From NCBI GenBank assembly GCA_035084275.1, contig CM068754.1:8308001-8372000 (forward strand): a DNA stretch of 64,000 bases, read 5' to 3'. The notes beneath the pieces were generated by a model. That model was not told where the DNA came from and did no database searches. It saw only the letters and a program-made list of their open reading frames with translations. Each line of letters begins with the position of its first letter. Within the stretch, counting starts at the first letter, position 1. The position numbers and the translations under genes were made by a program. The stretch is from Hydrolagus colliei (taxonomy: Eukaryota). Below are positions 8,950 through 63,236 of this stretch, piece after piece.

Positions 8950-9758
8950 AGTGAAACTGCTACATTGCTTAAGGATTCCACAGACGTGAATATTTCTGTT
9001 AATTATGAGAATGATTTCTGCTTGCACCCACCAATATCATGAGAAATTGTGCTTTATGTTTGTGGATCAATATTGTACATGATCCTTTGAGGTATGTAGC
9101 AGCATTTTCACTCCAGAATAAAACAATATAACAAGATTACTGGGGTTAATCTGCTGTGTGTGGCTGACATACCGAATGCAGTGTGCTATTCTTCTCTATT
9201 TGGTACATTTTGCAAAATTGCCCACTGTACTTATAAATGGCTATAAATCCAATTTCAACTTATAAATAACACCACATTAAAAACTAAAATTAAATTATAC
9301 ACATAAAATTCTATAATAGCAATCTATGAACCCACAAGTGCAAATGTAATGCCTTCTACTGCAGGATGGCCTGTCGATGTTCACTGTCTGGTTTCTGATA
9401 TAAAAGGAGAGTGGCGGACAAACAACCCAGCACAAAGAAGCAGCTTTAAGCTAAGGAACAAGGAAACAGAGATTGGTAAAAATATAAATTAGAACAATAA
9501 GCCTTATTGAGTTCCCCAAACCTGCCTGCGCAGTCTCCTACATTATGTTAGGTTCGGCTGCAGCAATAAACATGACTGCCTGCCCATCACTCCACCACTT
9601 TATCATGCACTGCCCCGGAAATAAATGTAGAATCATACTGCATGTATGCTTGCCACCCCAAGTGCTAAACAAACAGTTCCTTTTACTTTCAGCCACATTA
9701 ACATATATCGAGATATGTAACTGTTACATCCATAAATAAATATTATATTTATGCTTGT

Positions 9759-9970
9759 GGCATCCTGTAACTTAGTGGTTAGAGCACTCGCCTCGCTAGC
9801 GAGAGATCTGGGTTCGATTCTAGGCAGAGCAAAACCTTGGGCAAATTTCCTTACTCCACACACCTGATAATAACAGTCAATTCACTTTTCAGTATATTCT
9901 GTGAAGCACTTTGAGACATCTCGAAGACGTAAAAAAGCGCTATATAAAATGCAAGGATTATTATATTATT
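9759..9970 (+). mobile_element. Same tRNA-SINE family, core deleted
   Basis: Head with gggttcgattc joined at cctgataata directly to the tail. Confidence 0.85.
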
Positions 9971-12900
9971 TACATGCATTATGCATTTTCTTAAGAATGT
10001 TAAATGTTTTATGAGCAGTTGCTGTGGATTCTCTTTCTGCATCCCAATCTGTACTTCAGAGCTGTAACAGCTCAAACATAAATAAACAATGAGAAATTTA
10101 AAATCTTCATTAAAAAGTGTATATTATATATTGTAAATAAATCTGCTGCAAAGATTTTGGGTAGTAAGGTAGCTGTACAAATGGAAGAGCATTTAAATAA
10201 AACATGTTCTGTCAACATCTAGTGGCTACTTAGTATAAAATACCTTAAATACTTCATTTAAAAAAATCCTGGAACAAAATGTGATCCAGTGCCCTGCGAT
10301 TTTACTGAAAATGGGGGCTAAATCCATCCCTCAAAACTGTCAAAGCAAAAGATTTCAAGTAGACAACTGAAAATGTTGGAAGATCATTCAGTTAGTTAGC
10401 ATTTCGAATGTTACACGCAAAAATTCAAATGGAAGGTTGTTTGAATTTCTGTGAGTTGAGACTTAACCTATTGGGTTTGGGTGCTGTTCCATCTACTAGG
10501 CACTTCTTGCATTTTGGGCAAATTTTACCCCAGGCCCCTTTCTCAACTGGAACCTTAACCATAAATGAAGTACTGCATAAAAGTACGTCCTTTAAGGATG
10601 CATATCATTTGGGTTCTAACATAAAACCCATAAGAATATTATCTCTTTTTTAAAGTGGCATTGCTTTGCTCCATGTTCCATCACTCCACTGAGGTTTATT
10701 TTATTTATTTTAATATGTCTTCCCATTCTCTTACTTCGGAGTGATCGTCATATCCCCGTCATCGCAAAGTTTGTGGTGAAAGTGGGAAATCCGTTTGTTG
10801 AGGATGGGAGAGGGGGGCAGGGGTGGGCAGGAGAAAGACAGCGAGAGAGAAAAAAAACTGCCTCACTGCTCTTTGAGTAAAACTTTTGAATGCTCCAACA
10901 TTCAACACCATTGAAATCACCCAGCGTCTACTTCAGAAAAACTCTATTTAGCATTCACAATTTATGGAAGAAGTATTTTAGAATTGCATTCAGATAAACA
11001 CGCACACATAGATTTTAAAGAAGTAGCTATACCCCCGCGTAGCATATGCAGCCTAGTATTTTTGAACACATTATTCATATATTTAAAATCTTTTTTTAAA
11101 TAATGTATTTGTTGTTAACAAAAAAAAGAGGTGAGCTATAATCACTGGGTTGATTTTCCTGTTTTTTTTAAGCTGTATTGGTTTTTATTTTCCTTTTAGA
11201 AGTTCATTGCTACAATTGTGGAAACATACCTAAGGCTTTTATATACTGTATTTAGATAAATAACTGCATCCCCAAAGGATGAGATTGCATTGAACCAATA
11301 CATAATAAAAAGCACTTCCCTGGTTATCTAGTTAACAAACCAGTGGAATAACTAATCTGATCGCTCAGTCGATTACCATGGTACAAACTGATATCTTGGC
11401 AATCTAGCACAGACCCACAAATTTCAACATATGATTATAGATTTTGTTGTTGTAGATTCCATTATTGCATCAAATCTTCAGGTTTCAGAGATTTACTGCA
11501 ATAATGCATTTCCTGTAAATTACTCAAGCATAATAAATAAGTCAGTCTACTATTTATTGACAGTTTTAAAAATCCACCAGTGTCTGTAGTGTACTCAACA
11601 CTCAACATCCAATTCATTTATTTAGTCCTTAAATGCTATTAAGTAAGTGAGTGTGGATATTCTCCCAATCACTATCCAGATATCCCTGCTTGAAAGAGTG
11701 TGAATGTGTGCGTTTATGGACATCAGACAAGAATAGGATTGAAGTTGGATTCCTCACAGTTGAATAGTATGTCAACAACAACAACAACAATTTACATTTA
11801 TAGAGCGCCTTTCACGTCGGGAGGACGTCCCAAGTCAATACTTGCTAGTGGGAGGGGAGGCAGAAAAGAAGCTAACTGATTCAAGAATTTAACTTCTCTA
11901 TGCTACCTCCACAAAACAAATCCTGAAATGCAATGGATTAATTTGAATACTTTGCTTACAAACATGCAGTCACTACAGTTTACTTTAAATCACTTTGAGA
12001 TGTTCTCTCGACGGAAAATAAGAGGATTGTTATTATTATCAAAAATCAAGATTCTTATTGCCATAAAAAGAATGCAGGTTTAATGTATTAGCAATTCTTG
12101 TACGTTTCATCTGAACAGTAACCTATTGGTGGGTTTTCAAATGATTTTGTTGAGGAGGGACATAGTTACAGCATGGTGCCATATTAGTGCTGAGCTGCAA
12201 ATACAGTGCAACGCCATTGATTTAATACATCAATGCACACAACTCACACCGACTGCACTGCAACTCATAGGAAGAAATGAAAGCAGCCCACTCGCAATAA
12301 CCCCCGCCTCCCTCTCCCAGGTGTGTTTCCTGCCAAGCTCTATTAAATCTTCTGTAGTTTAATGTACCCATGAGAATTCTAGGAAAATCTGTGCCTCGCT
12401 GGCCCGCTGAAACAAGAGATAAACCGAAACAGGTCCCATTATAATGCAGAAAATTGTGTAATTTTTTTTAATGGAAGTATTTCCCTTAAGCTAAATCTTT
12501 CGAGTGCAGTGACTGATACTTTCAACATTGGAGCTACTAATTACATTTTTTTATATCTGTGTAACTATAGTGGCTGAAGTCAAACTCTCTAAAGCTTTTC
12601 GAAGTACAGTGTCTCGGAAATGGGAGAATAAAAATGCATCAAAAATGCTTTCAGCTCCTGGGGTTATTTGGATTCAGGGCCAGAAGTCTTCAAATGGTCC
12701 CATATATCAAGAGGGTTCAACTGGTCTGACTGGCACCCAATTTTGAGGCTAAGGATGCCACACTGGTAGCCCAGCACCTCCATCCAAATGCTCCTCTCCA
12801 GCCACCACAGTGTCTCCATTTGAATTCCATTCACAGAAGCTTGCATCAAGGATCCCAGTGCTGGAACAACATGTCAAACCACTGGCCTCCCCTAACTGCT

Positions 12901-14684
12901 GGGAAGCATGTGACCAAAAGCAGACTTGTGGGAGACCAAGGTTAAGGATGTAATGGGATCATACTTGAAAATGGTCGCTAAAGGTTTTATTTAATACCAG
13001 GGTTTACCCTGTGTGGACTTAAATCTACCAAATATTATTGAAAACAAGGTTTACATTTTAGTCCAATATAGAACTACAGCATTTAACAAGTGCAATGATA
13101 TTTCTCTATACTTCAAGACATAATAATATGATCCAGTAGGCAACACAGCCATTACGTCTGAAAAGCCCAACATTAGAAGCTGTACAGAAAGCGACAGAAT
13201 GATTGTGATGCATGTTTTACCCACCTCTGTTTAAAAGGTGTGAATACACATACCGATATTATATCTGAGCCTGTGGTCTTTACCTCTTAACACTTTCTCT
13301 AGGCATTAAAATATGTGAAATCAATAGATTATCCGTGAAGACAAAGTACATCCAGTACAAATTCCCATTGCTGTATTAATAATAAATAATGAAACTATTA
13401 AATCTCATACCATGAAATTGAATCTTATTTATTCTCATTTCAAACATAAAATGTATTTGTTTGTGTGCGCCAGTGGGTTGCCTTTGCTCTGCACTTCTGT
13501 TTAGTGGGATTGAACTCTTCACCTGTAATGAAGTGAGTGATGCTGTAATTCTGCCAGAAAACCAGGCCATTGATTTGTGCCGTAGAATATACCAGATGTT
13601 TTCTACAAGGGTCTCTTTGGGAGCCCACAAAAACAATGTTTTTTTTTCAACAAAAAACAGGGTCTGTGTTATAAAGAGTCTTTCATATGGGTTTTCTGTT
13701 TGGGAGAGGATGTAAAACTGTACTATGGAATTTTTGCTTGATTTGTGGTGGTTTAGCTTCCACAGAGTCAGCCACAACATTTCCTTTTTCCTTAAATCAT
13801 TTGTAACCAGAAGGGATTAATTTGTCAAAAGCTACCAGTTCCTCTGCCTTCCTTGCAATGTGAGAAATGACACACTTTTGTTGGTTGCTATTATGGAATC
13901 ACTTTCAATAATGTTATTTCACTGTTTCTATGCACCATGCACTGTCCCAATTTAGCAAAAAGGATAAGTAAAAGCCTATTGCCAAAAGTTAATTTGATGA
14001 ATAGGGTTATCCATTCGGTAAACCAGATTAACATCAAAATGCTTATTAATAACAAGATAGTTTGAGGTCTGGTGCAGAACTACCTACAAAATAACCAATG
14101 TGATCACAGTGAAGCAAATACGCAAAAGTGGCATGTGAGCAAACAGATTTTTGACTAATAAGCCTATCGCCAGGCTTCCAAGATGCTGCAAAGTGAATTT
14201 GGTTAAACTAAACTATGATAAGAAATAGCACACAATAAAAGGTAGGTAATTACAGTGAAACCTTGCATTTCTTTTTCGCACTTCATTTCAAATACAATTG
14301 TTCTCCTGGGTTTTGGCATTTACTTGTGGAAAAATATCCAAAGTGTACAAGCCAGCTCCATTGCTACTTTCAGTGCAGGCTGGACTCAGAAATACAAAAT
14401 ACCGCTGTGAATGCAACCAAGAATGGTTATCAAAAATAATAATCCCTGTATTCAATATATTTTTATCATAGATTGTTCTTTTGCTGTGTTTTTGTCAAGC
14501 GCAGCTCTACATGATGCAACCGATATTGTTTTGTACCTGACATTTCTCAAAAGACTATTAGAAGAATTAGATTGGGTAGACTATGTAGAGATAAAACAGT
14601 AATATTATCATTGTATAACGCTTCATCATGTCCTTGAGACGTCCCAAAGCACTTCACAGAATATACTAGTTCGTTCGGAATTAA

Positions 14685-14830
14685 CTTCGTCAGAATATAC
14701 TAGTTCTGACAAAGGGTCGTGGACCCGAAAAGTTGACTCACTTTCCTTTATCAATAAATGCTACCTGACCTGCTGCGAGTTCCCAGTACATTTGTTTCAG
14801 ATTTCCAGCTTCTGCAGTAGTTAGCAATTT
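14685..14830 (+). mobile_element. Partial copy C of the same element (centre plus right arm), inserted into a minus-strand SINE tail
   Basis: Shares ttctgacaaagggtcgtggacccgaaa...gatttccagcttctgcagt with copies A/B. Host SINE sequence at 14602-14668 resumes at ~14845 (tgactgtatattatgtgggcaaaa). Confidence 0.7.
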
Positions 14831-14879
14831 GTTTCTTGTTTGTCTGACTGTATATTATGTGGGCAAAAGTGACTTTATG

Positions 14880-21940: not shown

Positions 21941-22981
21941 AAATGATGTCATGATGAGGGACGGTAGGGTGGGTGTTTTGAAGAGATGAAATGGGATGGG
22001 CTGAAAGGCCTTCTTCATCCAGACCAATCTTGTGTCCTTGTCAATTAGCTACCAAATGCTTCGAGAGGGTTGAATAACATAAGCAATAGCTCATGTGCAG
22101 GGAATATAATGATTATTATTAGCTTCTCATTTCACCAAAATCCTGCTCATCATGGGATTGTTCTAGATTGGACTCGTTGTCATAGAACCCATGAAATCAC
22201 TAAACCTCTCTCCAATTCACTGCTTTAACAAAAAACATCTCCTGTTTTAGGTCCATTGTGAGGATCAAAGGAAAGTCTTTATTTCATATTCCAACAAGTC
22301 AGAATGTTTAAGTCGGTCTACGTGATAACCAGTCTCAATACCATGAATCACTTACATGTGAACATCCTGGCTATTGAGTTCACCCTGTCATTCCCAATTT
22401 GTAATTCTTCTCCTCCTCTCAATTTTTTATACTACTTCTCTTGGTTCCCATCTCCTTTAATTTACACTTCATAGGATTTTATTTTTTTGATTTCCAGTTT
22501 GATCCCTGTGCCTAAAGTTTTTATATAAACTCAATTATTGCTTTAACCAATTTTGTGGCTTATAATAAATGAAAATTTGTGTTTGACAAGAAGCAGCTGT
22601 TGTAAATGCTTCACTTTTGATGCTCAGAGTACAATTTCCTTCCATAATCATTCTTGTACATTGCGACTTCTTAATATAAACTATCCCCACTCACACTAGC
22701 CCTTCCCTCCCTATGCGCCCCCGTTTGTGCTGAGCTCTGTTTACGCAGCTGGAGTGCTGCTCCCCGGGTAAAGAAAGATAAATCAACCAGGGTGTGTTTC
22801 GGTAATCTGGCTCCCAATGCCTATCCAACATCCCCTGCTGGAAAGCGTGTATATGAGGAACAATGGACAAGGATAGGGGTTGGGCTCTACTATGGTGCGC
22901 TCAATACTCAAACAGCCCACCAGCGCTCACTATATTGGCTCCGAGTTAATTAATCTACCTTAAGGAAGGTAGATGCTTTAC

Positions 22982-23215
22982 ACAAAAACAAATATCGCTG
23001 GGAATATTCAGTGAGTCAGGCAGCATCTATGGAGAAAGGAAAAGTGAGTCAATGTTTCGGGTCCACGACCCTTCGCCAGTTCTGACAAAGGGTCGTGGAC
23101 CCAAAACGTTGACATGCTTTTTGTTTCTCCTTAGATGCTGCCTGACCTGCTGAGTGTTCCCAGTGATTTCTGTTTTTGTTTTAGATTTCCAGCATCTGCA
23201 GTGGTTTGCGTTGTT
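22982..23215 (+). mobile_element. Palindromic non-autonomous element with hammerhead-like motifs (Penelope-related), copy A
   Basis: Arms ~22982-23079 and 23082-23180 are inverted. TSD gtagatgctt(t/a)aca at 22969 and 23216. Contains ttctgacaaagggtcgtggaccc. Confidence 0.75.
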
Positions 23216-26200
23216 GTAGATGCTTAACAGTCGATCTGAGTGCCCTTGGGCTTGGAGGGGGGGGATCCTATTTCAGATTTCTATCCAGTGATCGCTGCTG
23301 GAACGTGTTCACATGTCCTTGTTAGATGAGTATAAGGCTTCTTGCAGGTGCAGAGCCCTAAAGCTATATTCCCTACGAACTCACTATCCAGCCTCAAGGT
23401 GAAGAACAGATAATACAATGTAATAGCAGAAGGTAACTGGTGTTTGAGGAACTTTTACCCAGGGTGAGTCAGTTCCTTGCCGAGTGCAATTTGGAATGGG
23501 GAAATAAACAAGGCTCTCCCGGGTACGTTCAGGGCCATTCATGCAACCAAATTGTCTGACTATGTAAATTTCAGTGAATTTCTGGCTCCTTCTGCAAAGA
23601 TACAACCCTCCTGTTACATAACATCGATTCAAACACCAAAAAAGTCTGCTCGAACATTAGTGTGATGCAAAGAATTTTAATGAAGAAATGATTTTTGCAC
23701 AACGCATAGAACATTAAATATATGCAAAATACAAATGAGGTACACAGCAATACCAAAAATACAGTAAACATATATATATATCAAAACGGATTTTAATTCA
23801 AATGAAAGAAATGGTACAAGCCTACTACTGCAGTTGAAATGCAGCTGGTTTATGCTGCATTGCAGTTCTTAGTTGAATTTACTATTGTTGCCTTTAATCG
23901 GTTCAATTGCAATCTGCTAACTTGAAATTACAGCCATGAGCATCCACATACACAAAAACAAGAGACGTACATTCCATACATCTTTGGAAATGTACAATGA
24001 GACTTTGCTATTACATACTCAAAAGGACCAAATATGCGGTTCTTTGAAGCTATATTATGCCTATACTGATAGAAATGGAACTTTCACCAGAATCAAGAAA
24101 ATCACTGTTCAATATGATAATCTTGTAATAGGTGAACTCATAATCATGACATTCTCATGTAAATTGGTTCAACATTGTGATACAGCATTAAAAAAAACAG
24201 CTCTTACAGAATGTTATAGAATGTCCCCGTACAAAATAAAAAAGCAACATTTGACTGATCTAAATATTTCCTCCCGCTGGCTAATGTGAAGACCATTAAA
24301 CGGAACACTGGGATTCAGTGATCCTGTTCCACTACCAGCAGCCTAAGTAATGCTACTCAAAATATTGTGTGAACGCTTTATAAGAGATGATATATGAAAA
24401 AAAATCTGAGTACCTTATTGTTTCAGGTCTGCAAAACGCTCCTGAAAGAATTTGTACGGTTATTCCTCACTGTCCAACCTATTGCGTGCAATCTGCTTTG
24501 TTTGATTTATTGCTGCAGAAAATAAAACATCTGTAATACTATAGATCTGTGGAAACACAGAAATAAGTAATTAATGCAGCCTGTAAAGACGCTCAGGATT
24601 TGTATTATTGAGAAAGAATCATAAAGCAAGCCCTTACGGCAACTTCCACTTATCTTCTATCATTTGCCTAGATTCATCAAAAATAGCAGTTTGGTCAAGA
24701 CATGAAGTCACTATTAACTGTGTAAGTCCAAGTACTGAAATAAGTTTCTAATGAAATGGAAAGAATATTAAATCTTGAAACTGGACCACATCAATATTGT
24801 GAGCTTTGCAAAGCAGCTTCGGGACCAGTGGAAGCAAAGTAACTGAGGGAACATCTTTAAATTGCTTTAAAACTAGTGCCTTGGCTCAATCAATTTTCAA
24901 TCATGCTTTCATTCCTAGATTGTGGCCCATTCCCTTCGCCCTCTCTGTACTAGTGGGAAGCTTACATTACTAAATGGGGAAATAATGCCGTCAGAGCCAT
25001 TTGAGGGGAAATCATTTTTCGGGACATAATAAACAAAACTCCAGATATATTCTCTCTATGTTAAAGTGAATGCAAATTTATAGCTTCCAATACAAACACC
25101 AAGAGAGACCAGTGCAGAATGTTTGGGGAGGAACCCTCCCACAATAAAATAAACCCACAATCTTTCGGTCATAAATGTGGGAAGCTTCATTTTTTTTTGC
25201 AAAAAAGCATACAAAAAGCATAATGCAAAAAATTATTTTGGCATCTATTACATTCAGTCATTCTTTGGGTATGTAAATGCACTCAAAGGACCGTATCAGT
25301 TGTGTCAGTAAATACAACTTGCCAACAGTTGCGTGTGGTGTGTAGCTGTTTGTGCAGTTTATTGACACGTTCCCCATGAAATCAGAATTATTTTTAATTT
25401 GCAGCTCAGTCAAACACCAGGAAGGCCACCAAGCACGTAATAGTACACTGAATTATATTCACGCCCCCCCCCCCCCCACCACCCCTGCACGTACACTAGT
25501 CATTCCAACCCCCTCTGCCCCAGTCACCCCGCCCCCCCCCACCCCCTCACCACACACACAAGCACATAAAGACAGGTAGCATAACGACTGAATCTCCGTG
25601 TGCTAACACATGGAAGGTCTGCAATTTTACTAAGTTTGCATTCACTCATCTTTGGGAAAGGGAAGATGCCGCAATTTAATATTTAACAGAGCAAATATTT
25701 CACCAAATGAAATTTCTATCAGCTCAGAGACAAACTGAATTAACTGCAGCTCAATAAAGTATAACAACAGGAGATCGATCATCCAGTCCTATGTATCTAA
25801 GCAGAAGTTCACTTCTCTTCCTCTCGAAACGAACAAGAACTAAAGGGAAAATGTGACTGAAAACTCAAATATGCCAAGCCACTCAAATTTGGATTGAAAA
25901 GAATGTACTGAAAGGAGAAGTACTTAGGAGACAAACAGTACAATGTGATTGACTTCAAGGAGATTGAATAATTAATTTGGTAGCAAAGCTTGGCTCCAAC
26001 ACCACTTTATTCGCCCACCAGAGTTAAACCGGTTTGAATGGAACAAAAAGCATTGTAATGTGGATTCAGAGAAATTTAGAAAGCCACATTTAAATAACAA
26101 ACATTTCAATGTTTGTTGTATACCGGCGGTGCCAGTTTCATTTGAGGTATTTGCATAATACTTTTGTCACCATTGAAATTTGAGACGACATTGCTGTAAC

Positions 26201-27196: not shown

Positions 27197-27214
27197 CTAG
27201 AATCTCTGCATTAC
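27197..27214 (-). CDS. pcdh11: Read-through C-terminus (VMQRF*) of a putative short pcdh11 isoform when the donor is skipped
   Basis: In-frame TAG 18 nt past the donor. Minus-strand AATAAA at 26754-26759, 26006-26011 and 25358-25363. Short intron-read-through isoforms are known for delta-1 protocadherins. Confidence 0.5.
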
Positions 27215-30200
27215 CTGTCTGGTGTGGATTGGCCCTGCAGTCTTGAAGCCTCCCTGACAACTGCACTCTGAAACGCTGTAGGGGTCTGAGCTGCTCGAAG
27301 AACACTTGGAGAGGGAATCACATCCCACAACAAATGTGTTATCCAGCGGTAACTCTTGGATGACGTGATGCTTCTTCACCGGGACTGGAGTCTCTGGCTT
27401 GATCTGAAAGGTGGGCTGCGGAGAGGCTGACTTATAGTGTTTCGCTAGATCCGGGCTATCGGGCTTAAAAGTAGTGGGCGTCGTACCCCAATTATACTTC
27501 CCCACAGTTTGATCCTCGAGCTCCACGGGGAGATCCAAGGTACCGTTGATGTGCTCGTGCGAAGGGTCGTCTGGCTTTGACTCCTCAATGGTAACGAAAT
27601 TCAGAAGAAGGTTCTTTGGAGACCGCTTCTTCTTTCTTTTCTTTTTCTTGATCTGCCTGTTTTCCTGGTTAGGGGACACCCATTCACCACTCTGCTTGCC
27701 CTTCTGCACAGCTTTATGCCTCGGAGTGTGACGGCAGCGAACCAAAGCGGTTACAAAGATGACAAGAATGACCGTCATAGTGCCGGCTATGATGGCAATT
27801 ACGATCTTAATGTAATCATTGGTCTGCGGGGTCAACTCGTTGTCGCCCACATTCTTATCCAAGGGAGTCTCCATACTTTTCCGCACCAGGTCCTGGAGGT
27901 ATGTGAAATTGTTAATGCTCTCGTTCACAAATAAATGGACCATGGCCATGGCTTGCAAGGATTCAGGTTGGCCCAAATCGATGACTTTCACCACTAGTCT
28001 GTACAAACCATAGTCAGAGGAGGTCACCTTTTCTTGCAGAGTAATATTGCCATTCATTGGATCAATGGCAAACAGCCCTCTGGAATTTCCACTCACTATA
28101 CTGTAGCGAAGTTCCGCATTCATCCCAGTGTCATTGTCAATTGCAAAGACCTTTCCCACCACCGAACCAGGGTTGGCAGAAATGGACACCAGTTCATAAG
28201 AATAGTTGGATGGGGGGTAGACAAACACTGGGCTGTTGTCATTTACATCAACAACATTGATAGTCACCCTGGCTACTGAGAAACGTTGAGGCCTACCTCC
28301 ATCCACAGCCTTGACTTGAAACGTGTACGAACTTTGCTGTTCCCTGTCAAATGTAATATTGGGCTTGATGACCCCTGTGGATGGGTCAATTATAAAGTAG
28401 CCTTTATCGTTCACAATGGAAAGGCTGACAGCCGCGTTAGCTCCCGCGTCTGAATCCGTAACTGTGATTAGCCCCACCGTCCCATACATGGGCAGGTTTT
28501 CAGGCACGTAGAAATTGTACTCGCTGTGCGTGAACGAAGGGCTGTTGTCATTTTGATCCAACACAGTCAGCACCACGGTAGCATTGCTCTGAAGCAGAGG
28601 CTTGCCCCCATCCCTGGCCAGCACCGTAAAGGCATAGCGGCCCTGCTTCTCCCGGTCTAACCTCCTCACGGCCGACAGAATTCCTGTCCTGCGGTCCAGG
28701 TTAAAGATGGATGGGGTATCGGGACCCAGGAGATAGGTGATCTCTGCATTTTTCCCACTGTCTGCGTCAGTAGCAGTTATTTTTGTCAACTGAGTACCGG
28801 GCGCATTATTTTCAGGGATTGACAGCCCAATTACGGGCTGATTAAAAACGGGAGCGTTATCATTCTCGTCTTTCAGTTTAATCACCACGGTGGCCGATTG
28901 ATTCAAAGGTGGCTTCCCCGCATCCGAAGCCACAATCTTAATCACGTATTCTCTGGTGTTCTCGTAGTCCAGCGAGGCGGCCGTTTCCAGCAAGAACTGG
29001 TTGTCGAAGACGGGCTTCAGGCGAAACGGGACGTCGTGGTCGGTGAAGCAGGAGACTTTGCCGTTGAGATCGGCGTCCTGGTCGGTGACGGTGATGAGGG
29101 CGATCTTGGTGTTGAGCGGGGCGTTCTCCGACAGCAGGACCGTCCCGTTCACGGGGTTGACGATGTACCTGGTGTCGATGGAAGGCACGTTGTCGTTCAC
29201 GTCGGTGATGTTGACCGTCACCACGGCCCTGGACGGGGTGGAGCTGCCGTCGCTGGCCAGCACCGTCAGCTTGTGGACCGGGAACTCCTCGCGGTCCAGC
29301 GTCTGCCTGACGGTGACCAGCCCCGTGGCGTTGTCGATGGAGAAGAGCCTCCTGGCCAGGCCGGAGACCTGGTTACTGAAGGAGAAACGCACCACGGCGT
29401 TGGCGCCCAGATCGGCGTCGGTGGCGTGCAGCTGGGTGACGGACGTGCCGACCGGCACGTCCTCAGGGATGTGGACGTCGATCTCGTTCTCCTTGAACAC
29501 GGGCCGGTTGTCGTTGACGTCGGTGACAGTGATCTGGAGGATGGCGGTGCTGGACCGGGGTGGCAGCCCGCCGTCCTCCACCTTGATCTTCATCACGTAC
29601 GTGTCCTTCTGCTCGCGGTCCAGCTTCTGCTGGACAATCAGCTGAGGCCACTTGTCCCCCTCCGGCGTCTCGATGATGTCCAAGCCGAAGACGCTCTGCC
29701 CTTTCAGCAGCTCGTAGTGTTGGATCCCGTTGACTCCCACGTCGGGGTCCACGGCCGATGGGATGGAGTAACGCGAATTGACGGCCGTGTTCTCCGGGAT
29801 GGAGATGTTGATGACGGTGGACGGGAAGAGAGGGGCGTTGTCGTTGATGTCCTCGATCAGAAACCTCATCTTGACCAGCTGGAAGACCTCGTTGGGCAAC
29901 ACGGCCACCTCGACCTCGTAGAAGCAGCGGGTCTCGCTGTAGATTCCGGCGCAGAGTTTCTCGCGGTCGATCCTGTTGCCGGTGGTGAACAGCTCCCCCG
30001 TGTTGTCCTCCACCCGGATCAGAGGCTTGTCCCCCGTCTTGTAGACCAGCTTGAAGACCAGGGGCAGGTCCTGGACCTCGGTCAGGTTCAGATCCCGCAC
30101 CAAGTTGGCAATCAGGACATTTTCCGGCAATTCCTCTCTGACCGTGTAGTTCTTCTCCTGCCCGAAGCCCTGGGCTAAGATGCAGGCGATCACAGCCAGT

Positions 30201-30229
30201 GTCTGGCACATTGTAGCTGGTAACTCCAT
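27215..30229 (-). CDS. pcdh11: Protocadherin-11 (delta-1 protocadherin) large coding exon: signal peptide, 7 cadherin repeats, TM helix, proximal cytoplasmic tail
   Basis: Part of ORF 27197..30475(-). [23 protein letters not shown] is a signal peptide. It is followed by [30 protein letters not shown], repeated DRE/DxNDN Ca-binding motifs, [26 protein letters not shown], then [44 protein letters not shown] and [20 protein letters not shown]. These match recalled PCDH11X better than PCDH9. Ends HTRQ at donor CAG|GTAATG (GT 27214-27213). An alternative in-frame ATG is at 30256. Confidence 0.9.
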
Positions 30230-33848: not shown

Positions 33849-36729
33849 GCACAGAGAATCTGCAGCATTTCCTCGATTTTCAGAGGGTATATTAAATGCA
33901 GTATTTAGTGGGGGAGTGGATCATGTGATTCCCGAATCTATAGTGAACAGTTGCCCTCCGTAAAATGTTTCTGCAATCTCATTGTGTGATCTCGGTGAGA
34001 CTGACGTATCGCCCTGAACGCCTTACTCCGAGATGAGCAGTGAACACCGGGCTGAACCTCACCAACCAGGCCCTTCAATAAAGAGAAACATTGACGGGTT
34101 GTACGGATCCCATTGCGGACACTGTGGTTATGACTGAGAAGGGTCAGTGGAGCAAACACTATTCAACCTACCCAGACTGTGTAGTCAGATCAAGTGGTGC
34201 TTGTGCTTGATAAATAAAATGACAGGCTTTATGCCCAAATTACATCAACCATAAATTAGATATATGAATCGTAGTAAAGTATCTCGGCCCCAAAGGACAT
34301 CAGCTCAGAAAGTAGGCGATGTCAAGTTGAATCGCAGGAGCTCATTAGTCAGCTCATATTTAAAATCAGTGGCCAGGAAATAAGATCTCGCCATAGGAAT
34401 ATTAAAGCAGTTGAGATTCCTGAATGTGAAGGAAAACATGATCTAAAAATGGTATCTCTTCGAATCAAACTGCAATTTCTAAGAACATCCTTATGTGGCT
34501 GTTTTTTTTTAGTTTTGACAATCGATACAGCTAATTCATTCTGGAGACATGGAATCCTGCAGTCAGATTTACAACCAAATCATTAATTATCATAAAAAGA
34601 AAAAAACCACTGTGGAATCTATCTTAATATCAAGGGCGGGTTTTATTCGAGAGCGTGTATTATCTGGTGTGAGCGGGATGGGGAATAACGGGAAGATTGT
34701 TAAACACACGGTAAAGTTTTTACATGGGAAATGTCTAACCTAGGAACGAAAGTTGGATCTCTGCCAAACATTTCAGTTCGGGCCCATCACAAGGGACTTA
34801 TCCACCAGCTTCCCCAGTTCTTTCAGACTGAAGCGGGCTGTGACCATGCAAAAATCGGGCGGTTAAGTTAAACTCAAAGCACAGTGATCATTATGTTGCC
34901 CAGACATGAAGACAAATAATTTTGGACATGTCTCATTGCAGAGGAGAGAATTGCAGCCGAATGGAAAAGAATGAGGTTCTTTCAGGGAATCGGTGCAGAG
35001 TTTACAAAGTCATGAGATGACGAGGAGAAAGCAGGGGGGCGGGGGGGGGGGGGGGGGAAAGGGAGAAGCAATCCCATGATACATGTTTACAGTATACAAT
35101 CTACAGAGGCTCATTGTGAAGAAGGATAGCTCACCATTACACACTGCACATGAGTGTTCTTTCACAAGCATATGGTTATTTTTTTTTGGGGGGGTGGGCA
35201 GGGAAGGTCACCCATGTGAGTTATTGTCGAACTATAGCTAACACAAACGACCGTAGAACTATTCCCATTTTTCTCGTGCAAAGTCACTGCGTTTCACAAT
35301 AACTATTATGAGGGTGCTGTAAAATGCATGTTTTCTTTCATTCATTTAGCAATTATGTCAACTGTCCTTATTGCTTGGTATACAACAGTCAATGGAGTAA
35401 GACTCGACGGTTTTAACCACGTAATTGTTCGATCAATTATTTCAGTGCTTATTTTCAAACATTCGAGGCAGCCTCCTCTCAAGTATCCGCAACAACAAAA
35501 TGACACTTGCATAGCGTCTTTCACGTCAGGAGGGTGTCCCATGGCGCTGAATCAGTTTGCAACAACAGCAAATGACATTTGTCTAGAGCCTTCCACGTCA
35601 GGAGGATTTCCCAAAGCACCGGACAGTCAGGGATCCGCAGAAGTGCGTGGCGTTTCAGTAATATTTTTTTAAAAAACAGTTGATGGAACTCAAGTGATAC
35701 AGTCCAGGAGTTACAGGTTTCAGGGTAACAACATTCCACCCACTCACCCAGGGAGACGGAACGCAATGCCCTCAGTGCTCTCCCAGGTAAGGAAACTTTC
35801 AAATAATGAGTGATTAACATAACTGAATTATATATGAACGGTAAATGAACAAGTGCTGCTTCAATTATGCAGAGGAGTTTCTTGCCATCGTAATGAGTGA
35901 TCCGATGTGATCGCAGCCAGCCACCAAGCCACTGTGAAAGCCACATGAATCAAAGCACTTCTCTGCAAAATCTAGTTTTCGCTCTCCTCTTTGGCCTCTT
36001 CTCGTAGAGTTCCTTCATTTATTGTGCTTTAATGGTAGTTTAATGGTTTGCCTTCTGTCACATTAGATTATGTATCCAACGCATGATGTCTTCGTTTGTA
36101 TATTTTTTGTCCTTGTGGAGAATATTTATTGATCCCACCCCTGGTTTTAGTCCAATTCAGATGGCCGGACACGGTGAGAGGTGCAAGAGAAACGCCACCT
36201 CCTTTTGAAGTATCGAAAAGTTTCATAATGCGATCACAATTTAAACTCGGTGGGAAAAAGAGAAGCGTTGCTCGAGCTAAACAAAACAGATTATTTGATT
36301 CGGAATTTTTTTTTAAAAGGATAATCCATCAAGAAATCAAAATACTTTTATGGTTGAATGTAGCCTTTTTTAGAGGTGATAAAAAAAAATGACTTTCACA
36401 ATTTATGCCTGAGATCACATTTCATCCCTGACTTGGTTTGGCTTGGGTCCACTTTACTGCACAATTTACTGATGCCCTGTTAGCACAGTAGTGTCACTAT
36501 CAATGGTTGTGTTCAGTTATAAATAGTTTGTGGTTTCCTGATTGATTGTCTTGTTAAATGACTTCCCCATCAAAATATCCAGTTTATTCCAGCTGTATAA
36601 TGCCAGATAATGTTGCCGATTCAGATTAAATGTTCAATGTTTAGTTTTTTTTAATACTTAATTGTAGAATAATATGTTAACCTTCATAGCACTTTCTGTC
36701 ATTTTCAATCAGCAGTCCTAATGGAATAT

Positions 36730-36890
36730 AAATAATAATCATTGCATTTGATATGGTGCTTTTCATGTCTTCCAGACGTCTCAAAGCGCTTCACAGAATA
36801 TACTGTAAAGCACTGTACTGTACGTATGTGGGTGAAACGTGGCAGCCAATCGCGCACAGCAGTGTCACACAAACAGTTGTGGATTGAAAA
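36730..36890 (-). mobile_element. Same tRNA-SINE family, 3' fragment
   Basis: gacgtctcaaagcgcttcacagaatatactgtaaag...cacaaacagttgtggattgaa. Confidence 0.8.
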
Positions 36891-37943
36891 TATTCAGTAT
36901 CTCACTTGATTCAAACATTTTCTTAAGGGACTCTTTGTGATTTTCATATTTCACATCTATATTGAAGTCAGAATTAAGGAAATAAAGTAAGTTTCACTAT
37001 AAAGTGTAGAAGTACCAGCAGTGCCATCAAAAGGTTCACTCACACGATTGAAACGTGAAATGTGCCAATTTAGGGCAGAGGGTTTACAATTTAGGGCAGA
37101 AGGTTTACAGCATCTGCATTCATGATGAGAGCATCTCTTGATTCAATTCACAGTGTGAAAATCAAGTACATTCTCTAGCTATATTGTACCAGATATGGAA
37201 GATAGAAATTCACAGGGAAACATAAGCACAAAATAATGACAGAAAAATATCGCTGATTATTTGCAGGAAGATTTTCAATTAAGAAGGTGTTCTGTTGCCA
37301 TCTCAAGAGCTCACTCAATAACAGAATCCCAGTGTACAGTATGTGCATTTTTAGTTTATTTTATTTATAGTTTTATGGGAAGGTACAAGATGTGTGAGTT
37401 GATGAATGGAACAAACATCTGTCTGGGCACTCAATGTCAGCACCAAGCACCTTCAGCTGAAATATACCAGCAATCAGACGCAGAGTGAAGATCCTTTTAT
37501 TTCTGCAACAACAAACAGTTTGGCTTCTAAAGTCTTGTCTTCCTCTCAAAATCCGAAGCCTTTAAAACCTGAACTTGGCTCCGTCTAACTACCACTTCTT
37601 ATTTTGTCTTGTCCTCTGTCCTATTCTTTTCGACCTTGGTGTCATCCTGAACTTGGCCTTGGCCCGTTCACCTGGATCTCTCAGCTGAAAAACAATGTGC
37701 CTGAACCCTACTCTCAGAGGAGGCCCCCTGCTGCACCATGGTGAACTTCTCCATTTCCCTGACCAGTCATCCATATGGCCTAAATAATTCAAATGCACTA
37801 CGTCAATTGCAGTGAATGTTAAGCAGTCTGTGCTGTGGACAACTTGGTTGAGGTTTCGCAAACTTTGTATCGCACAGCACGGTTACAACTAATACAACAT
37901 TTAAGGGGACAGTTCTGTTCGATTTACTCAAATCACTCATTCT

Positions 37944-38257
37944 GGAGTCCTGTAGCTCAGCGGTTAGAGCACTCGCCTTACAAGAGAGAGACCTAGGTTC
38001 GATTCCAGGCAGTTGTGAAACCTTGGGCAAGTTTCCTTACTCCACAACCCTGATAATAATCCCTCAAAAAAACAACTATAATAAAATTGGACATTTCAAT
38101 CCACGACTGTTTGTAGGACACTTCTGTGTGTAATTGGTTGCCACGTTTTGCCCACAAATATAGTCAATTCACTTTACAGTATATTCTGTGAAGTGCTTTG
38201 AGACATCTAGAAGATGTGAAAAGCACTACAGTACATTGAATGCAAGGATTATTATTG
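37944..38257 (+). mobile_element. tRNA-derived SINE, full length (tRNA head, Deu-like core, L2-type tail)
   Basis: A box gtagctcagcggtt, B box ggttcgattcc, tail gtgaagtgctttgagac...gcaaggattattatt. Many homologous copies in the window. Confidence 0.9.
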
Positions 38258-38802: not shown

Positions 38803-39068
38803 GAGTCCTGTAGCTCAGTAGTTAGAGCATTTGCCTCGCAAGTGAGAGACCTGGGTTTTCTACTCTACATGCCTGATAATAATTCCTGAAGGAAAATATA
38901 CAAAAATTTGTCACTTCAATTGACGAGTGTTTATGAGACATTGCTGTGCCCAAATAGCTGCCATGTTTCGCCCACAAATATATAATCAATTTACTTTACA
39001 GTATATTCTGTGAAGTAGAGATGTTTCAAGACATGGAAAGGGCTATGTTAAATTCAAGGATTATTATT
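38803..39068 (+). mobile_element. Same tRNA-SINE family, deletion in head
   Basis: gagtcctgtagctcagtagttagagc ... caaggattattatt. Confidence 0.85.
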
Positions 39069-39359
39069 AATATTAAACCCGCAGGGGAAAGAGCAGAAGA
39101 AAAGCCACATTCATTTACCATTTAAACTGTACTTATAGAACGAAGCAGTGACTCTACCAATGGGAGCTTCACATTTAGAGAAATTTCGAAATTTGTAGAG
39201 TTCATTGTGACAAGCAGATGCCAAATCACTCATTTCTAGTAACCTGGTTCTGGTTTACTGCAATAAACACGATATGAGTGAAGCAGCAGCTTATGTTTCA
39301 GTGATTCACAACTGATGCTATGGAATTCGGAGATGGCTGAAGCCTGTACAGAAGTTGCC

Positions 39360-41400: not shown

Positions 41401-41610
41401 GTGACAATCGTATATCAGGTAATTCCATCACTTTCCTAACAACTAAAAAAACCTCTTTACCTTCCCAGATTAAATTCACTCTCGAGTCCAATAAAATTAC
41501 AGGATTCAAATGATGTTGCACAATGATGAAATGGGTAGACATTATGGAGAGCATCCGCTTGGGACATCCTCCTGACGTAAAAGGCGCTTATACAAGTGTA
41601 GTTTTGTTGT

Positions 41611-41833
41611 AACAAAAACAAAAGTTGCTGGGGAAACTCAGCAGGTCAAACAGCATCCATGGAGAAAGGAAAAGGAGTCAACGTTTCGGGTCCGCGACCC
41701 TTCGGCAGAACAGTAGACCCGAAACGTTGGCTCCTTTTCCTTTCTCCAGGGATGCTGTTTGACCTGCTGAGTTTCCCCAGCAACTTCTGTTTTTGTTTCA
41801 GATTCCCAGCATCTGTAGTATTTTGTGTTTTGT
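41611..41833 (+). mobile_element. Palindromic non-autonomous element with hammerhead-like motif, copy B, inserted in an L2-type tail
   Basis: Arms 41611-41692 and 41716-41797 are near-perfect inverted repeats. Perfect 14 bp TSD tgtagttttgttgt at 41597-41610 and 41834-41847. Confidence 0.8.
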
Positions 41834-42524
41834 TGTAGTTTTGTTGTTATTGTTGTAGTATGAGCTCAGGTGTTGCAGATTCCTCTTTACAGGTAGACAG
41901 AATCACAATCAATATTAGCAACTTCCTGCTTAAAACCATTGATGTCACACCCCGCGCTCATTATCAGGTAGTCAGGCACGGGTAGAGCCTTGCTCACTAC
42001 CTGAAGATTTCAGAACAATTCACAAATAGATTGCATCTAAGCACTGTCAGAAACCGCAACACCAATGAGAACTGACAAGGTGTCCCGCTGGCCATAGAGT
42101 TTTGTATAATGCAATGTAAATTTATGAAACATATGCATAAACAGATGCCAGTTACCAGCAAAGCACATCTAATTATGTCTGAGGTCGCATCCTGGATTGG
42201 ACAGCACAATAGATTTGGGATTTCACCACCCCAGATTAAGAAAAACTTGTACGCTTGAGTTTGGAAACTTAGGACAGGCTTCAAGACAGATGTGCAATGT
42301 GTCGTTACATTTCCCATTCCCCAGTACTTCCATTTCAAAAGGATTACAGAAATAGTGGTAAAAAATGCTTCAGCCTTTCCTTAAAGCAAATAGATTTTTC
42401 CTGTGCCTGTGACTTTGCAGTGTGTTCATTTTCTATACTTCAAAGTGCCTTTAATTCAAGTAATTCCTTGTCCCCCGGCGTGAAAAGCGCTCAATAAACG
42501 TAATTTTGTTATTGTTGTTGTCAT

Positions 42525-43605: not shown

Positions 43606-43780
43606 GCGTGCATGTCTCTTCATGTCTGCTTGTTGCACTTCAGAATGCCGTGTTGTGCTTCAAAATGGGTTGTCTCTTGATCCCGTGTTCTGGAGCAATG
43701 TGAGAAGTGCAAATGGTGCTTTTTATCAAGCGTGATTGAGATTTGAAACATCCTCGGTCATGCTTTCTCCCCGGCAATGA

Positions 43781-43926
43781 CAGCAAAATTACATTTGTAT
43801 AGCAACTTTCACATCGGAAGCACGTCCCAAAACTCTGGGAAAGTGCATGACGCTGTCCTGAGCCTTGGGACGTCCTCCTGACGTGAAAGGCGTTGTACAA
43901 ATGTAATTTGGTTGTTGTTGTTGTTG
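43781..43926. repeat. Inverted pair of ~55 bp L2-type 3' tails
   Basis: 43781-43830 (-) and 43865-43926 (+). Solo tails of the same type occur at ~11775, 35495, 35565, 38675, 41557, 52190, 52633 and 62285. Confidence 0.75.
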
Positions 43927-45329: not shown

Positions 45330-45790
45330 CCTTACATTTGACAGAGTGCCTCATCGTGTCTCAATAGACCTTGCAGGATTCGCTGTAAAGTGTAGTGATT
45401 GTGCAGTTTGTAGACAAAGGTGGCAGCCAATTTGCGCACAGCAACATCCTACAAACAGTAATTGAAATGAATGTTCAATTTTATTTGGGAGATTTTTGCC
45501 AGGCTACAAGGAATAACATTTCCGAATTGAATTTTTAACGTCCACTGGACCAGGTAGATGGGACCTCTGTTTATCATTTCCTCTGAAGGATGCAACCTCC
45601 GATAATGCATGTGTTTTCCATCACTGGACTTGATTGTTATCTTGGACTATGAAAGTCAAATTCCCAAAATGCGGCTTAAGCAACAACCACGAAATTACAT
45701 TTGTACAGAACCTGTCACATTAGGAGGACATCCCAAGGCACTGGAACCCACAGCATTCTGATTCACTGGTGAGTGCTACCAACTCTAAAG
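45330..45790 (-). mobile_element. Deu-domain SINE, degenerate, with nested L2-type tail
   Basis: ggcagccaatttgcgcacagcaacatcc...ttaacgtccactggaccagg...ctgaaggatgcaacctccga. Confidence 0.55.
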
Positions 45791-51220: not shown

Positions 51221-54200
51221 ACTCGCTGTATAAACTCACTTTAGATAAAAACAGAATCCTTGCTTGTGATGAAGCAGTATTATCAAGTCATCAAAATGTC
51301 TCAAAGCGCTTCATAGGATTTACTGTCAAGTGCGGTGACAAATTTTTTTTGGTAGGCATCCTATTTGTACACACAGAATTATAAATTTTATTCAAGGGAT
51401 TGTTGGCCAGGACACCAGGACAAATGCCATTCTCTTTCGGAACAATTCTACACGATCTTAAGACTCTGAACAGACTGGCGAGGACTCAGTTTAGTGTCTA
51501 AAGGACGGCACCCCACATCACCGCACTGGAATATCAAACCAGACTCTTGAAGGGCTACTGGGTACTGATCAGGGGCAAAATCCCTGGCTGTTGCTTCTCC
51601 TCTGTAGTCTATGGGGTGTTGAGGCCATTTGTAGCACCCCACAATTGCTGCCGCAGATGAGATATGATTTCCTGTAATATAGGGAAAGTTTATTTCCAAA
51701 TTAACCTGATTGGCATGGTAAACAAGGGGTGAGTTAACATAGCTCATTAGTATGTTATTCCTAACAACATAATGATTAAAACACTCTATATTTCATTAAG
51801 TTGCTTGTTCCACTTTAGGTAGAACAGAAAAGTCTATGTTCTAATTAACCTAATGAGTATTTGCATATTAGGCCTCTTACCACATTAATTAACACATTAC
51901 TCCCAAAGCACAACAATTATGCTTTGTCAGTGTTGTGGGATAAAAGTGGCATGTTTTAGAATGATTGTGTAAGGAAGCATTTGAATCAGAATGATCTGCA
52001 CAAACAGCCTGTCTTATAGTTACATTTATAGTTACTTTGTAAAGATGTATTTTGAGCCATTAATGAAAATGTCATGGTTACATCGAATGCGCTACTATGT
52101 CAACTATCCAACACTGAACCTTGGTACAAAGTAATATGTGCAGACATCAAAAGAAACAAGCACAGAAGAAGGGACGATAATCACATACAACAACAACAAC
52201 AATTTTGATTTATATAGCGCCCTCCACGCCAGACGGCATCTCAGTGCGCTTCAAATTCAAAGAGTACAAAGAGAAAAAAGATTAGCACTTTAAAAGGGGC
52301 AGCAGTAGCTATTTGAAGACAAGAGTGAGTGAGAAAAATGATGCTAACTCAGTTAAAAAGACTGCAACACTGACATGCAGCAGAAACAGATGCTAACACA
52401 GCAAATGGGGCTGCAATGTCATGTACAGAGAGTATGGGTGAGAAAAACCAGTACAATATAGCAAAAAAGGAAACAACAGCCAGAGAGAGAGAGAGAAAGA
52501 GAGTTAATTGGGCTAATTTAAAATTAACTTTAATAAAATCTCAATTCAGCAAGAAAGGAGATGTGAAGTTGTTTTGGGCAGCACACACTGTTGTAGTTGT
52601 GAATACAAAGGAATGTATGCACTGCTAACTGCAACAACAACAACAACAACAAAATTACATTTGTATAGCGACTTTCACGTTGGGAGGACGCTCCAAGCTG
52701 CCTTGAGCATGGTTTTGTTCCTCAGTGACAGATGACTGAGTTGCTACTGTACAACCGAGCAAGGGAACCAGTACAGAAAGCAGTACAGCAAGCCGGCATC
52801 TACTTCCTGGAATGAACATGACTGAACGAACATACGCTTGGTAATCTTTTATTTGGGTAGTGCAGTGACATGCCTCTTGTTGATTTCAGACTGACTGTCA
52901 ACAGAAATGTATCGTAGGTATCTCACTTGACAATTTGCAGACCATCTCTAACACACTGATGGAAACCACCCACTGAGCCTCTGTCACCTGGAAGATAATC
53001 ACAAATTTGCCGCAATGATTTTCAACTCGAAGAACTGTTGCTATGCTACTTCTATTGTCTGATATTTTTTTCCCTTCTCCCCGAAACAAAATGTTACCTG
53101 TTAATTATCGTTTGACATACATTTCTGATTTCTGCCAACAGGATGACACTGTGACATAATTTCAATAATACAAGAACAAAGGATGTTAGATCGGAATCTA
53201 CTTCTATATCTGTAGCAGTTTCTGTCAGAAGAAAGGAGAACAGCAGAATTAAGATCTCAGAGGTGATGTTGGTGTTTTCCTATTTCTTTACTGCACTAAT
53301 CTGTCAAAAGTGAAACAAGTCTGGAACTCCTCACCACTGCATGTCCAATAACTTCAGTCTATCCAGATTGGAAGGGAGGGAAAGTGACACTATTTCTTAT
53401 AGGCATCGCAAAGCTAGGAAAATAGCTAAAGGAAAATAAATGCTTCAGCAAACTGGGCATCTCAATTCCAGTGATTATGCTGAGTGTTGACTTAAAATTA
53501 TGAACAACATCTCTGGGAACTATTCTATAGAATAGATAGATCGACAGATAGATGAAGAAAGCTAGAGCTGGAGACAAGCGAGCATGCAGAGCGTGTTTTG
53601 CGAAAGTAGTCTTCATTTAAAAGAAATCATAATCCTTTCACTTGACATGGCATGTTGGGAGGCCGTCTCAAAGCATTTCACAAGATTTACTATAAACTAT
53701 AATATTATTATAGTGAACTGTCGTGATTGTATTTTGTATGCAAACACAGCACAGCAATGTGCCACAAACAGCCAGGAAGTGAATGATCAATTTTAACTTG
53801 ATTGTGGCCCTGGAGACCTGGATTTGCTTCAATGTCACATCCAAAGGATTGGCTCCTCCAGCAATCCAAAGCTCCCCCGGCAATGCATTGAAATGCCAGC
53901 TGTGATGGGTGGGTGGTGGCTGGGGGCCTGCGGCATTGTGCCTATTCTTACTTCATAATAACAATACATTATTACATGTAGTAAACCAGATATCTCCATC
54001 ATTGTGATAATTCACGAGAATCTGCTCACCCTTCAATAAATGGGGTCCAAATCAGAAAGTCTAATAAGCATTTTAAAACGTTCCAGTTCTTCAGCTTTCA
54101 AAGTGTCACGTATATTCACTGCACTTACATAATTTCAACTTGTTTTTGTACAACTTGAATAAAATGTTTTGCCATGCAACTTAAAAGGCTTAAAATTATG

Positions 54201-61770: not shown

Positions 61771-62905
61771 ACGCATTCGTGTCTAGCGTGAAAAAGCGCT
61801 ATATCAAATGCAAGGATTATTATGTCACACAAGATCATTAGGTCGTCAGTGGAGCTAGGCCAAAGATCTTAATAAACTTAATACTGTATTGTGGGAGAAA
61901 AATTCAGGCCTCTTGTTTTTTTTACTCTGAACCATTCAATCAGAGAGACCGATTGCTTCTCACACTGCTTGCTACAGATTATGGCTCAAACTCAAGTGAG
62001 TACTGAAATACATAGTGAACTGCACTGTATCTATAGTATTTTCATTCATTTGCGCTGTCATTGAAAAACAGTGAGTCAGACTGAAAATGATTGAAAGAAT
62101 TAACCTGTGTGAAATGATGGAAGTTCAAATATACCCACTGCATTTAAAACATTGCCATTTGCTACACATATATCAATGCAACAGTTGCTGATCTGATGGA
62201 ATAAAATTTCATTGGGGAAACTCCACATAGAGCGTCTACATCAAGCTTTCGTACAATCAGAATCATTGCAGAAATCCTGTAAATAACAACAAAATTACAT
62301 TTGTATAATGCCTTTCACATTGTAAAGTTCAGATATGCTGAAATAAAAGTACACCCAGCAGGGCAAAATGTCTAAAAATGGCAAAAATAATAATATAACC
62401 ACTTAATAACAACAAAACCTGTATAGGATGACTCTAGTACAGAAATACAATAGGTTGTCGCTTTGAATTCATTGCAGGACTACATTAGGAACAGATGCTG
62501 AAATCACCAACACGCAGCTCCAATTCTAATTTTGAGACATATATTGTGCAAGGGTACATTACATCAAAGATTTCTAAGCAAATAACTGTGATTGCCAGTC
62601 AGCCTTAATTTAAGGAAACGTTCTTTCTCTAACTAAATGCAAACTAGGGTCTCTTCAAGAATTTGGCAAACTGAGTGCTGTTCCTGAGAGCTTCCATCAC
62701 ACACATCACTGCATCACTCTCCAGCAAAACTAAAAGTGGAATAAGAATTACTTATGAATATACATTGTGTTTAATACCCTATGTAATAAGTAATTAAAAT
62801 GTACTGTGACTGGACACTTAAGGAACATCCAAGGAAAATTTACAGTTATTAAAATGTAAAGAGCAGTGAAAGAAGTTGCATTTCAGTAACCGGGACTGGA
62901 TGAAG

Positions 62906-63236
62906 GATAATAATAATAATAATACTTGCAATTGATACAGCGCTTTTTACATCTTATCAACATCTCAAAGCGCTTCACAGAATATACTGTAAAGTGAATT
63001 GACTGTATATTTGTGGGCGAAACGCGGCAGCCAATTGTGCACGGCAATGTCCCACAAACAGCTGTGGATTGAAATGACCAATTTTTATTATTGTGTTTAT
63101 TTTTGGATGGATTATTATTAGGCATGTGTGTGGAGAAATGAAACTTGCCCAAGGTTTCACCCTGATCTGCCTGGATTCGAACACAGGTCTCACGCTTGTA
63201 AGGCGAGTGCTCTAACCATTGAGCTACAGGAGCTCC
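62906..63236 (-). mobile_element. Same tRNA-SINE family, full length
   Basis: Reverse complement of the 37944 element, including the head (gagctacagg, ggattcgaac) and (TAA)n tail. Confidence 0.9.

Follow-up and report, generated by a model that had tools for sequence, protein, structure and literature searches.

Lopsided inverted repeats with minimal hammerhead motifs in Hydrolagus colliei, probable stubs of a Penelope-like pseudo-LTR end

The locus and its repeats

The window analyzed here is a stretch of 64 kb from Hydrolagus colliei. On its minus strand it carries a large coding exon (27200-30208) that belongs to an orthologue of protocadherin-11X; the last 204 residues of this exon are 98% identical to those of Callorhinchus milii, 96-97% identical to those of sharks and rays and at most 94% identical to those of bony vertebrates. 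Two of the three repeat copies described below, c14 and c23, lie downstream of this exon and are likely intronic, and the third, c41, is found about 11 kb upstream.

Two further repeat families occupy the window. A tRNA-headed SINE family of about 320 bp is present at 37943-38256, 62915-63237, 9755-9970, 36725-36889, 38803-39075, 63816-64000 and other sites, with Rfam tRNA matches at 37950, 63167, 9765 and 38804, and one of its copies is the insertion target of c14. A second repeat, consisting of a 55-65-bp 3' end followed by a TTG-repeat tail, occurs in at least seven places (43780-43915, 35490-35626, 52642-52697, 11772-11834, 45681-45745, 62282-62322 and 41558-41610). At the first of these, two copies face apart and form a 136-bp imperfect inverted repeat. 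By eye, the end of this second repeat resembles that of the tRNA-headed SINE.

Self-comparison of the window bears out the original prediction of three copies of a short element at about 14.7, 23.0 and 41.6 kb, here called c14, c23 and c41 (Table 1). The repeat unit is about 140 nt long and runs from the 5' strand of stem I of a hammerhead motif to a tail. In c23, a 14-bp duplication is followed by an inverted short arm, a long arm, a 36-nt tail and the second duplication; c41 has the same order, with a duplication of 16 bp and a tail of 38 nt. Both are lopsided head-to-head pairs in which only the long arm carries the tail, and c14 is a single long arm whose left counterpart is reduced to an 11-nt inverted remnant. 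The claim that all copies are palindromic therefore fails for c14, and neither the 36-38 extra nucleotides on the right nor the target duplications had been remarked upon. None of the three copies has an ORF between its arms.

The target duplications have one mismatch each. A 14-bp duplication was reached by one of 1500 random position pairs and a 16-bp duplication by none of 1500; that of c41 is of low complexity. No long target duplication was found for c14. At either end of an element, 1-3 nt are common to it and the duplication. Duplications of 14-16 bp agree with the predicted nature of the copies as non-coding retrotransposed DNA.

The centres differ in all three copies. That of c23 is a 3-nt overlap forming a short stem round a 2-nt loop. 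In c41, the long arm is about 20 nt short, so that the tail-less arm carries about 20 nt absent from the tail-bearing arm, and in c14 there is a complex join that contains target-derived DNA. The arms differ from each other at 3/81 positions in c41 and 15/76 in c23, as compared with 12-19 differences between copies; by this measure of divergence, c41 is a young copy and c23 an old one. The 5' edge shared by the arms (window 23076-23082) fits the initiator consensus, YYANWYY, with its A as the first base of stem I.

Table 1. Coordinates of the three copies and their parts within the window
Feature	Position	Strand	Remarks
c23 left target-site duplication	22969..22982	.	14 bp, 1 mismatch; final 3 nt match the arm end as well
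c23 short arm, inverted, without tail, starting at hammerhead core	22983..23079	-	self-comparison, arm alignment
c23 minus-strand hammerhead motif	23047..23079	-	2 deviations, stem I 5' strand absent; descriptor
c23 long arm (one unit)	23077..23215	+	3 nt (23077-23079) common with short arm at centre
c23 plus-strand hammerhead motif	23078..23114	+	2 core deviations; cleavage would come after 23110; descriptor
c23 branch-point-like A (23112), pyrimidine tract, AG (23133-23134), ATG (23135)	23109..23137	+	acceptor use inferred from other sharks' gene models
c23 30-codon frame from ATG 23135, running through tail		+	translation
c23 tail, 36 nt, long arm only	23180..23215	+	contig ends pile at 23177-23181
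c23 right target-site duplication	23216..23229	.	14 bp
c41 left target-site duplication, in TTG-rich end of another repeat	41597..41612	.	16 bp, 1 mismatch
c41 short arm, inverted, complete to 5' edge	41613..41713	-	arm alignment
c41 hammerhead motif in short arm	41676-41712	-	1 deviation; descriptor
c41 long arm, about 20 nt missing at 5' end	41714..41833	+	half motif 41716-41732; tail 41796-41833 (38 nt)
c41 right target-site duplication	41834..41849	.	16 bp
c14 inverted-arm remnant, intact 5' half of core only	14685..14695	-	11 nt
c14 junction, 16-nt repeat of 14657-14672	14691..14706	+	first 11 nt are target SINE
c14 long arm with tail, 7-nt deletion, nested in tRNA-headed SINE	14702..14835	+	without long duplication
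c14 hammerhead motif	14702-14738	+	2 deviations; descriptor

Hammerhead motifs

Four minimal type I hammerheads, all close to complete, and two half-motifs occur in the three copies. The minimal hammerheads of PMC4209133 combine CUGANGAH, a G-C pair closing a 5-bp helix II, GAAA, a palindromic C-G at 15.2/16.2, NUH and a 4-bp helix I, and several of the motifs linked to Penelope-like elements (PLEs) in its Fig. S3 end in C, G, U, U. In the majority of local arms, the same features are present (CUGANGAH, G10.1-C11.1, GAAA, palindromic 15.2/16.2, NUH and a short helix I), and the window consensus shares the C, G, U, U ending. The arms yield the consensus that had been drawn from five CUGANGA-like cores, and its assignment to the Penelope kind of minimal type I hammerhead fits the consensus of Fig. 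S3. The palindromic stem III, originally given as AACGUU, stands in a shortened form: under the published numbering, helix III of the dimer comprises ACGU, and the flanking A and U count as positions 14 and 17 of the core.

A descriptor built on the published consensus, a check proposed with the original prediction, finds no exact match, one with at most one deviation and four with at most two, all of them in the three copies, as against none in each of 40 dinucleotide shuffles. Given this difference, the motif is, at the level of sequence, real and beyond chance. The deviations are G8>A and G12>A in the plus-strand motif of c23, A6>G and G16.2>A in its minus-strand motif, A6>C in the minus-strand motif of c41 and G8>A and C15.2>A in c14, which confirms the predicted one or two deviations per complete motif; a change of CG to CA accounts for four of the seven. 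An intact CUGACGAAG does survive on the minus strand at 14685-14693, and no individual copy of the window has an intact core. The placement of the motif at the centre on both strands holds for c23, where the 5' strand of stem I is gone from the minus-strand copy and none of its pairs can form, but not for c41, whose plus-strand copy starts inside loop II, or for c14, with its half core.

Another proposed check, an Rfam scan, returned no hammerhead among 21 matches up to E 5; a mir-2131 match on c41 (E 0.0015) is far under the cut-off of that model. In single-motif folds, either stem II alone or stems I and II form, at energies no better than those of shuffles, as would be expected for a motif that lacks a stem III of its own. 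The hammerhead pattern has no match in public metagenome contigs. A 22-nt arm pattern has none in viral and prokaryotic contigs; its single match to a metagenome contig spans 26 nt only and was taken as chance. No RNA collection is listed as containing the stretch.

Folding suggests little activity for the copies as they stand. The predicted folding energy of the c23 hairpin is -145.6 kcal/mol (z -18), and a read-through RNA is predicted to form a hairpin of about 100 bp in which the ribozyme is buried. In the three folds tried, the probability of the outer stem II pair is 0 to six places, and imposing stem II together with an unpaired core would require 23, 35 and 18 kcal/mol. Because this hairpin would bury stem II and the core, and because no intact motif is left, the window copies are probably unable to cut RNA; the idea that the transcript of either strand is cleaved is not upheld. 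Co-transcriptional folding could briefly expose the first arm, but the first arm carries the reverse complement of the motif. The host pre-mRNA corresponds to the minus strand, on which the motif of c23 has no stem I and two deviations and c14 has only half a core. The three window copies show no sign of function.

The family in related organisms

Evidence on the family as a whole comes from contigs of public runs from four related organisms, aligned to c23 (22229, 20322, 2711 and 6956 contigs, respectively). Over the arms, depth adds up to 10^4 to 10^5 times that of the flank, a sign of abundance and not a copy number, and by this sign the family is very abundant in all four. At 23076, a T, which gives CUGACGA on the minus strand, makes up 89, 87, 93 and 94% of the depth in the four runs, and the deviation of c23 at this site is a minority letter among the rows listed. 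The consensus of loose contig ends before 23124 reads GAAAC in two of the four runs and a decayed AAAAC in the other two. Since the majority letter at 23076 and, in two runs, the loose-end consensus restore the core at these places, the sequences indicate that the family has a hammerhead motif which the window copies have lost. A second subfamily, seen in three of the four runs among loose ends before 23126, has U-A in place of U-G in stem I, a change that preserves pairing, and, at the final position of stem II, U in place of C.

A miniature inverted-repeat DNA transposon, with hammerhead-like letters by chance, would also be short, non-coding, folded back and very abundant, yet such an origin is most improbable. 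Its ends would not be expected to be as asymmetric as those seen here, with a tail of 36-38 nt on one side and one copy single-armed; the duplications are long and of two lengths (14 and 16 bp), not short and fixed; and the match of the motif to a retroelement ribozyme greatly exceeds chance expectation.

The contigs also define the ends of the unit. In all four runs, contig ends cluster at 23177-23181, where the short arm stops. Beyond 23079, the loose letters are consistent over about 5 nt, which complete stem I, and then scatter (agreement 0.43; 244 contigs in X5 and 43 in X12). From this scatter, the 5' edge of the unit appears sharp, with few copies having a common sequence 5' of the hammerhead. 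The joints between arms, drawn from short contigs at 80% likeness and flagged as unreliable, carry moderate weight: among 12 listed of 208, nine have one arm running to 23073-23079 and the other resuming at 23138-23187, at nine different places, two of them inside the tail.

Individual insertions can be followed as well. An organism B contig (window 22560-23016, 17 differing letters in about 455) runs from the flank into 34 nt of the left arm of c23, and the c23 insertion is on this evidence common to two organisms. In organism E, the c23 site is spanned by a contig of 3363 nt with no aligned piece listed on the element, but this contig is only 122 nt shorter, not the expected 247 or so, and does not establish an empty site.

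These observations bear on the original view of a palindromic non-autonomous element of about 220 bp, SINE- or retrozyme-like, copied as a unit by Penelope proteins with ribozymes working on both strands. Non-autonomous PLE derivatives do exist (10.64898/2026.07.22.740005), the two whole copies agree in both ends and are flanked by long duplications, and the arms of c41 share subfamily letters (3/81 differences as against the 12-19 between copies), a likeness also expected under the pseudo-LTR reading set out below. Against this view, there are three different centres, and thus no single fixed consensus, and many join points in other copies; the junction of c14 holds DNA of its own target; and, within the window, the hairpin buries the motifs and none is intact. 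Rfam finds no tRNA-, 5S- or 7SL-derived head on any copy, and self-comparison of the window reveals inverted pairs and dispersed copies only, with no head-to-tail tandem of the retrozyme kind. Copying as one palindromic unit has consequently become an improbable account.

A putative splice acceptor beside the ribozyme

In four of the five arms, an A that resembles the branch-point consensus lies 2 nt past the cleavage position, within stem I, followed by a stretch with 14-17 pyrimidines in 19 and then an ATG. The AG before the ATG is kept only in the two arms of c23, and in c23 and c41 the frame that the ATG opens continues without a stop to the end of the tail. A protein search with the encoded peptide returned shark host-gene isoforms and no retroelement protein. 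These include GLE1 of Chiloscyllium, a CRAT-like gene of Stegostoma and an uncharacterized gene of Heterodontus, with blocks of 20, 25 and 29 residues, respectively, that are absent from sister isoforms or orthologues. All three blocks start exactly at the methionine of the unit, after AG. One RNF14 isoform enters at a second AG, adjoining the end of the short arm, and two further isoforms begin upstream, inside the unit. The isoforms are RefSeq predicted models read as proteins only, and the search detects blocks in this frame only.

Because the three internal blocks all start at the ATG behind an AG, these gene models suggest that the acceptor works in host genes and adds exons to some shark genes. 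The acceptor may belong to a leader intron of the element itself, as known from D. virilis Penelope, whose intron ends at helix I (PMC4209133), or it may be a chance by-product. A leader intron would fit less easily here, since a putative start 58 nt upstream would give it little space.

Origin of the copies

Head-to-head inverted pseudo-LTRs (pLTRs) with a 31-bp tail on one of them, duplications of 8-10 bp, palindromes at the junctions and solo pLTRs have been described for PLEs in PMC3846280, where Pen2a_Av has an inverted pLTR in head-to-head orientation, a 31-bp tail and a 9-bp duplication. Fig. 2 of PMC8557442 presents the same layout, with a tail of 30-40 bp, and its mechanism is there called undefined. 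The window copies share with such insertions an inverted head-to-head 5' copy (in c23 and c41, with a remnant in c14), a tail of 30-40 bp on one end (36 and 38 nt) and a target duplication in two of three copies. Like Pen2a_Av and Pen2_Av, they combine an inverted copy, a tail on one arm, a duplication and a junction palindrome with first codons inside the repeat (12 in Pen2a, or 22 with the tail, and 15-16 here, or 26-28 with the tail). Unlike those elements, they consist of two repeat pieces only, with no ORF between; their duplications are 14-16 bp instead of 8-10 bp, and their abundance is far higher. The layout of inverted pseudo-LTR, tail and duplication is hence already known, and it is found here without an ORF.

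The most probable reading, in which we place considerable confidence, is that the copies are stubs of the pseudo-LTR end of a PLE, each holding one or two pieces of a hammerhead unit of about 140 nt, with the mirror image likely made by two-ended priming during insertion. The likeness to pLTR stubs is well supported by sequence; assignment to a named clade, such as Poseidon or Neptune, does not follow from the data. No source of the required proteins was seen nearby: a Pfam scan of the 150 longest of 291 stop-free frames of at least 55 aa, lying outside 27.0-33.2 kb and 45.9-46.6 kb, gave no match to RT or GIY-YIG and one weak unrelated match. The peptide of the unit, as a short query a weak test, found no retroelement protein in protein searches and no Atlas match. 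What these searches returned were three host-gene isoforms among 127 candidates in one case, two among three in another (one being the query itself) and one unrelated repeat protein.

In this mechanism, an endonuclease would nick the two strands 14-16 nt apart and leave two 3' ends. On uncleaved RNA, one of these would serve as primer at the tail end and its partner at a point 36-38 nt upstream. All five arms that reach the cleavage position cross it, and the templates, as far as the sequences tell, were accordingly uncut at the hammerhead. Both cDNAs would stop at or before the same 5' edge, whose sharpness is best read as the probable start of the RNA, and priming in the first pLTR of the transcript would mean that only these 140 nt are copied. 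The two cDNA ends would then be joined via homology of 1-3 nt, and repair would fix the palindrome. Arm copies that overlap would need two RNAs or strand displacement. The stubs would thereafter be dead ends in which the hammerheads decay, largely at CpG. Two-ended priming resembles the twin priming of L1, except that here the two copies can overlap.

It may instead be that the origin is the same and that the mirror arm arose by fold-back, with a cDNA or antisense template priming itself at the small palindrome of the 5' edge. The c23 centre, a short stem with a 2-nt loop, is exactly as expected for fold-back and fits it as well as two-ended priming, and PMC3846280 interprets the junction palindromes of rotifer elements as self-priming. 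On the other hand, the extra nucleotides of the tail-less arm of c41 would call for a later deletion, and in two of the 12 listed joints a tail-bearing arm shortened to within the tail adjoins a complete second arm. Later deletion at the centres of DNA palindromes can also make centres differ, a point that counts against two-ended priming. Overall, fold-back seems a possible but rather unlikely source of the second arm.

Comparison with other Penelope-like elements and retrozymes

Several features of the proposed two-ended priming are paralleled in PAc, the Poseidon element of Anolis carolinensis (PMC11167929). There, each of the two strands is cut as well as extended, and reverse transcription begins at two internal sites that lie one tail length from each other. 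In vitro, the template is mainly uncleaved RNA, and the hammerhead cleaves only in the presence of the protein. PAc is a predicted dimer, and the main text of that study offers no explanation of inverted copies. The window copies resemble it in having two 3' ends one tail apart, a hammerhead about 100-140 nt upstream and templates uncut at the hammerhead. In PAc, however, the ORF starts at stem II and priming occurs in an AC-rich loop, whereas here the ATG is 25 nt past the cleavage position and the ends are U/G-rich. Transcription of D. virilis Penelope starts in its pLTR (PMC8557442).

Paired motifs have precedents in PMC4209133, which describes motif pairs in Schistosoma, spaced by 100-700 bp and on opposite strands, as well as a bracovirus PLE with a second motif on its other strand. 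In contrast to those pairs, the paired motifs of the window abut or overlap, and every local copy is mutated. Animal non-LTR retrozymes (PMC7229834; 10.64898/2026.07.22.740005), reported in the one chondrichthyan sampled, are similar in being short non-coding units with type I hammerheads related to pLTRs. They are arranged as head-to-tail arrays that yield circular RNA, whereas the present family occurs as dispersed head-to-head pairs or single arms.

No cartilaginous fish appears in the Fig. S3 list or Table S1 of PMC4209133, among the parts examined, and in the supplement of PMC8557442 neither a 14-nt arm motif nor any mention of shark, skate or Callorhinchus was found. No description of the family was found in the literature searched, a scope that lies outside Repbase, Dfam and most subscription journals.

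Significance

A broader and more tentative proposal, less likely true than not in its entirety, is that the stubs represent the first 140 nt or so of a Penelope mRNA, twin-primed at two internal start sites, and that tens of thousands of them record the inverted-pLTR step. Stem I would overlap the branch point of a working acceptor, so that ribozyme folding and splicing compete, and the family would be a source of cassette exons in cartilaginous fishes in the manner of Alu.

For annotation, such stubs are of relevance in two ways: they resemble MITEs or microRNA precursors, and the splice acceptor of the unit appears in shark gene models. The building of inverted pLTRs is stated as open in PMC8557442, and a short and abundant family of this kind would allow the models for it to be separated by counts of junctions.
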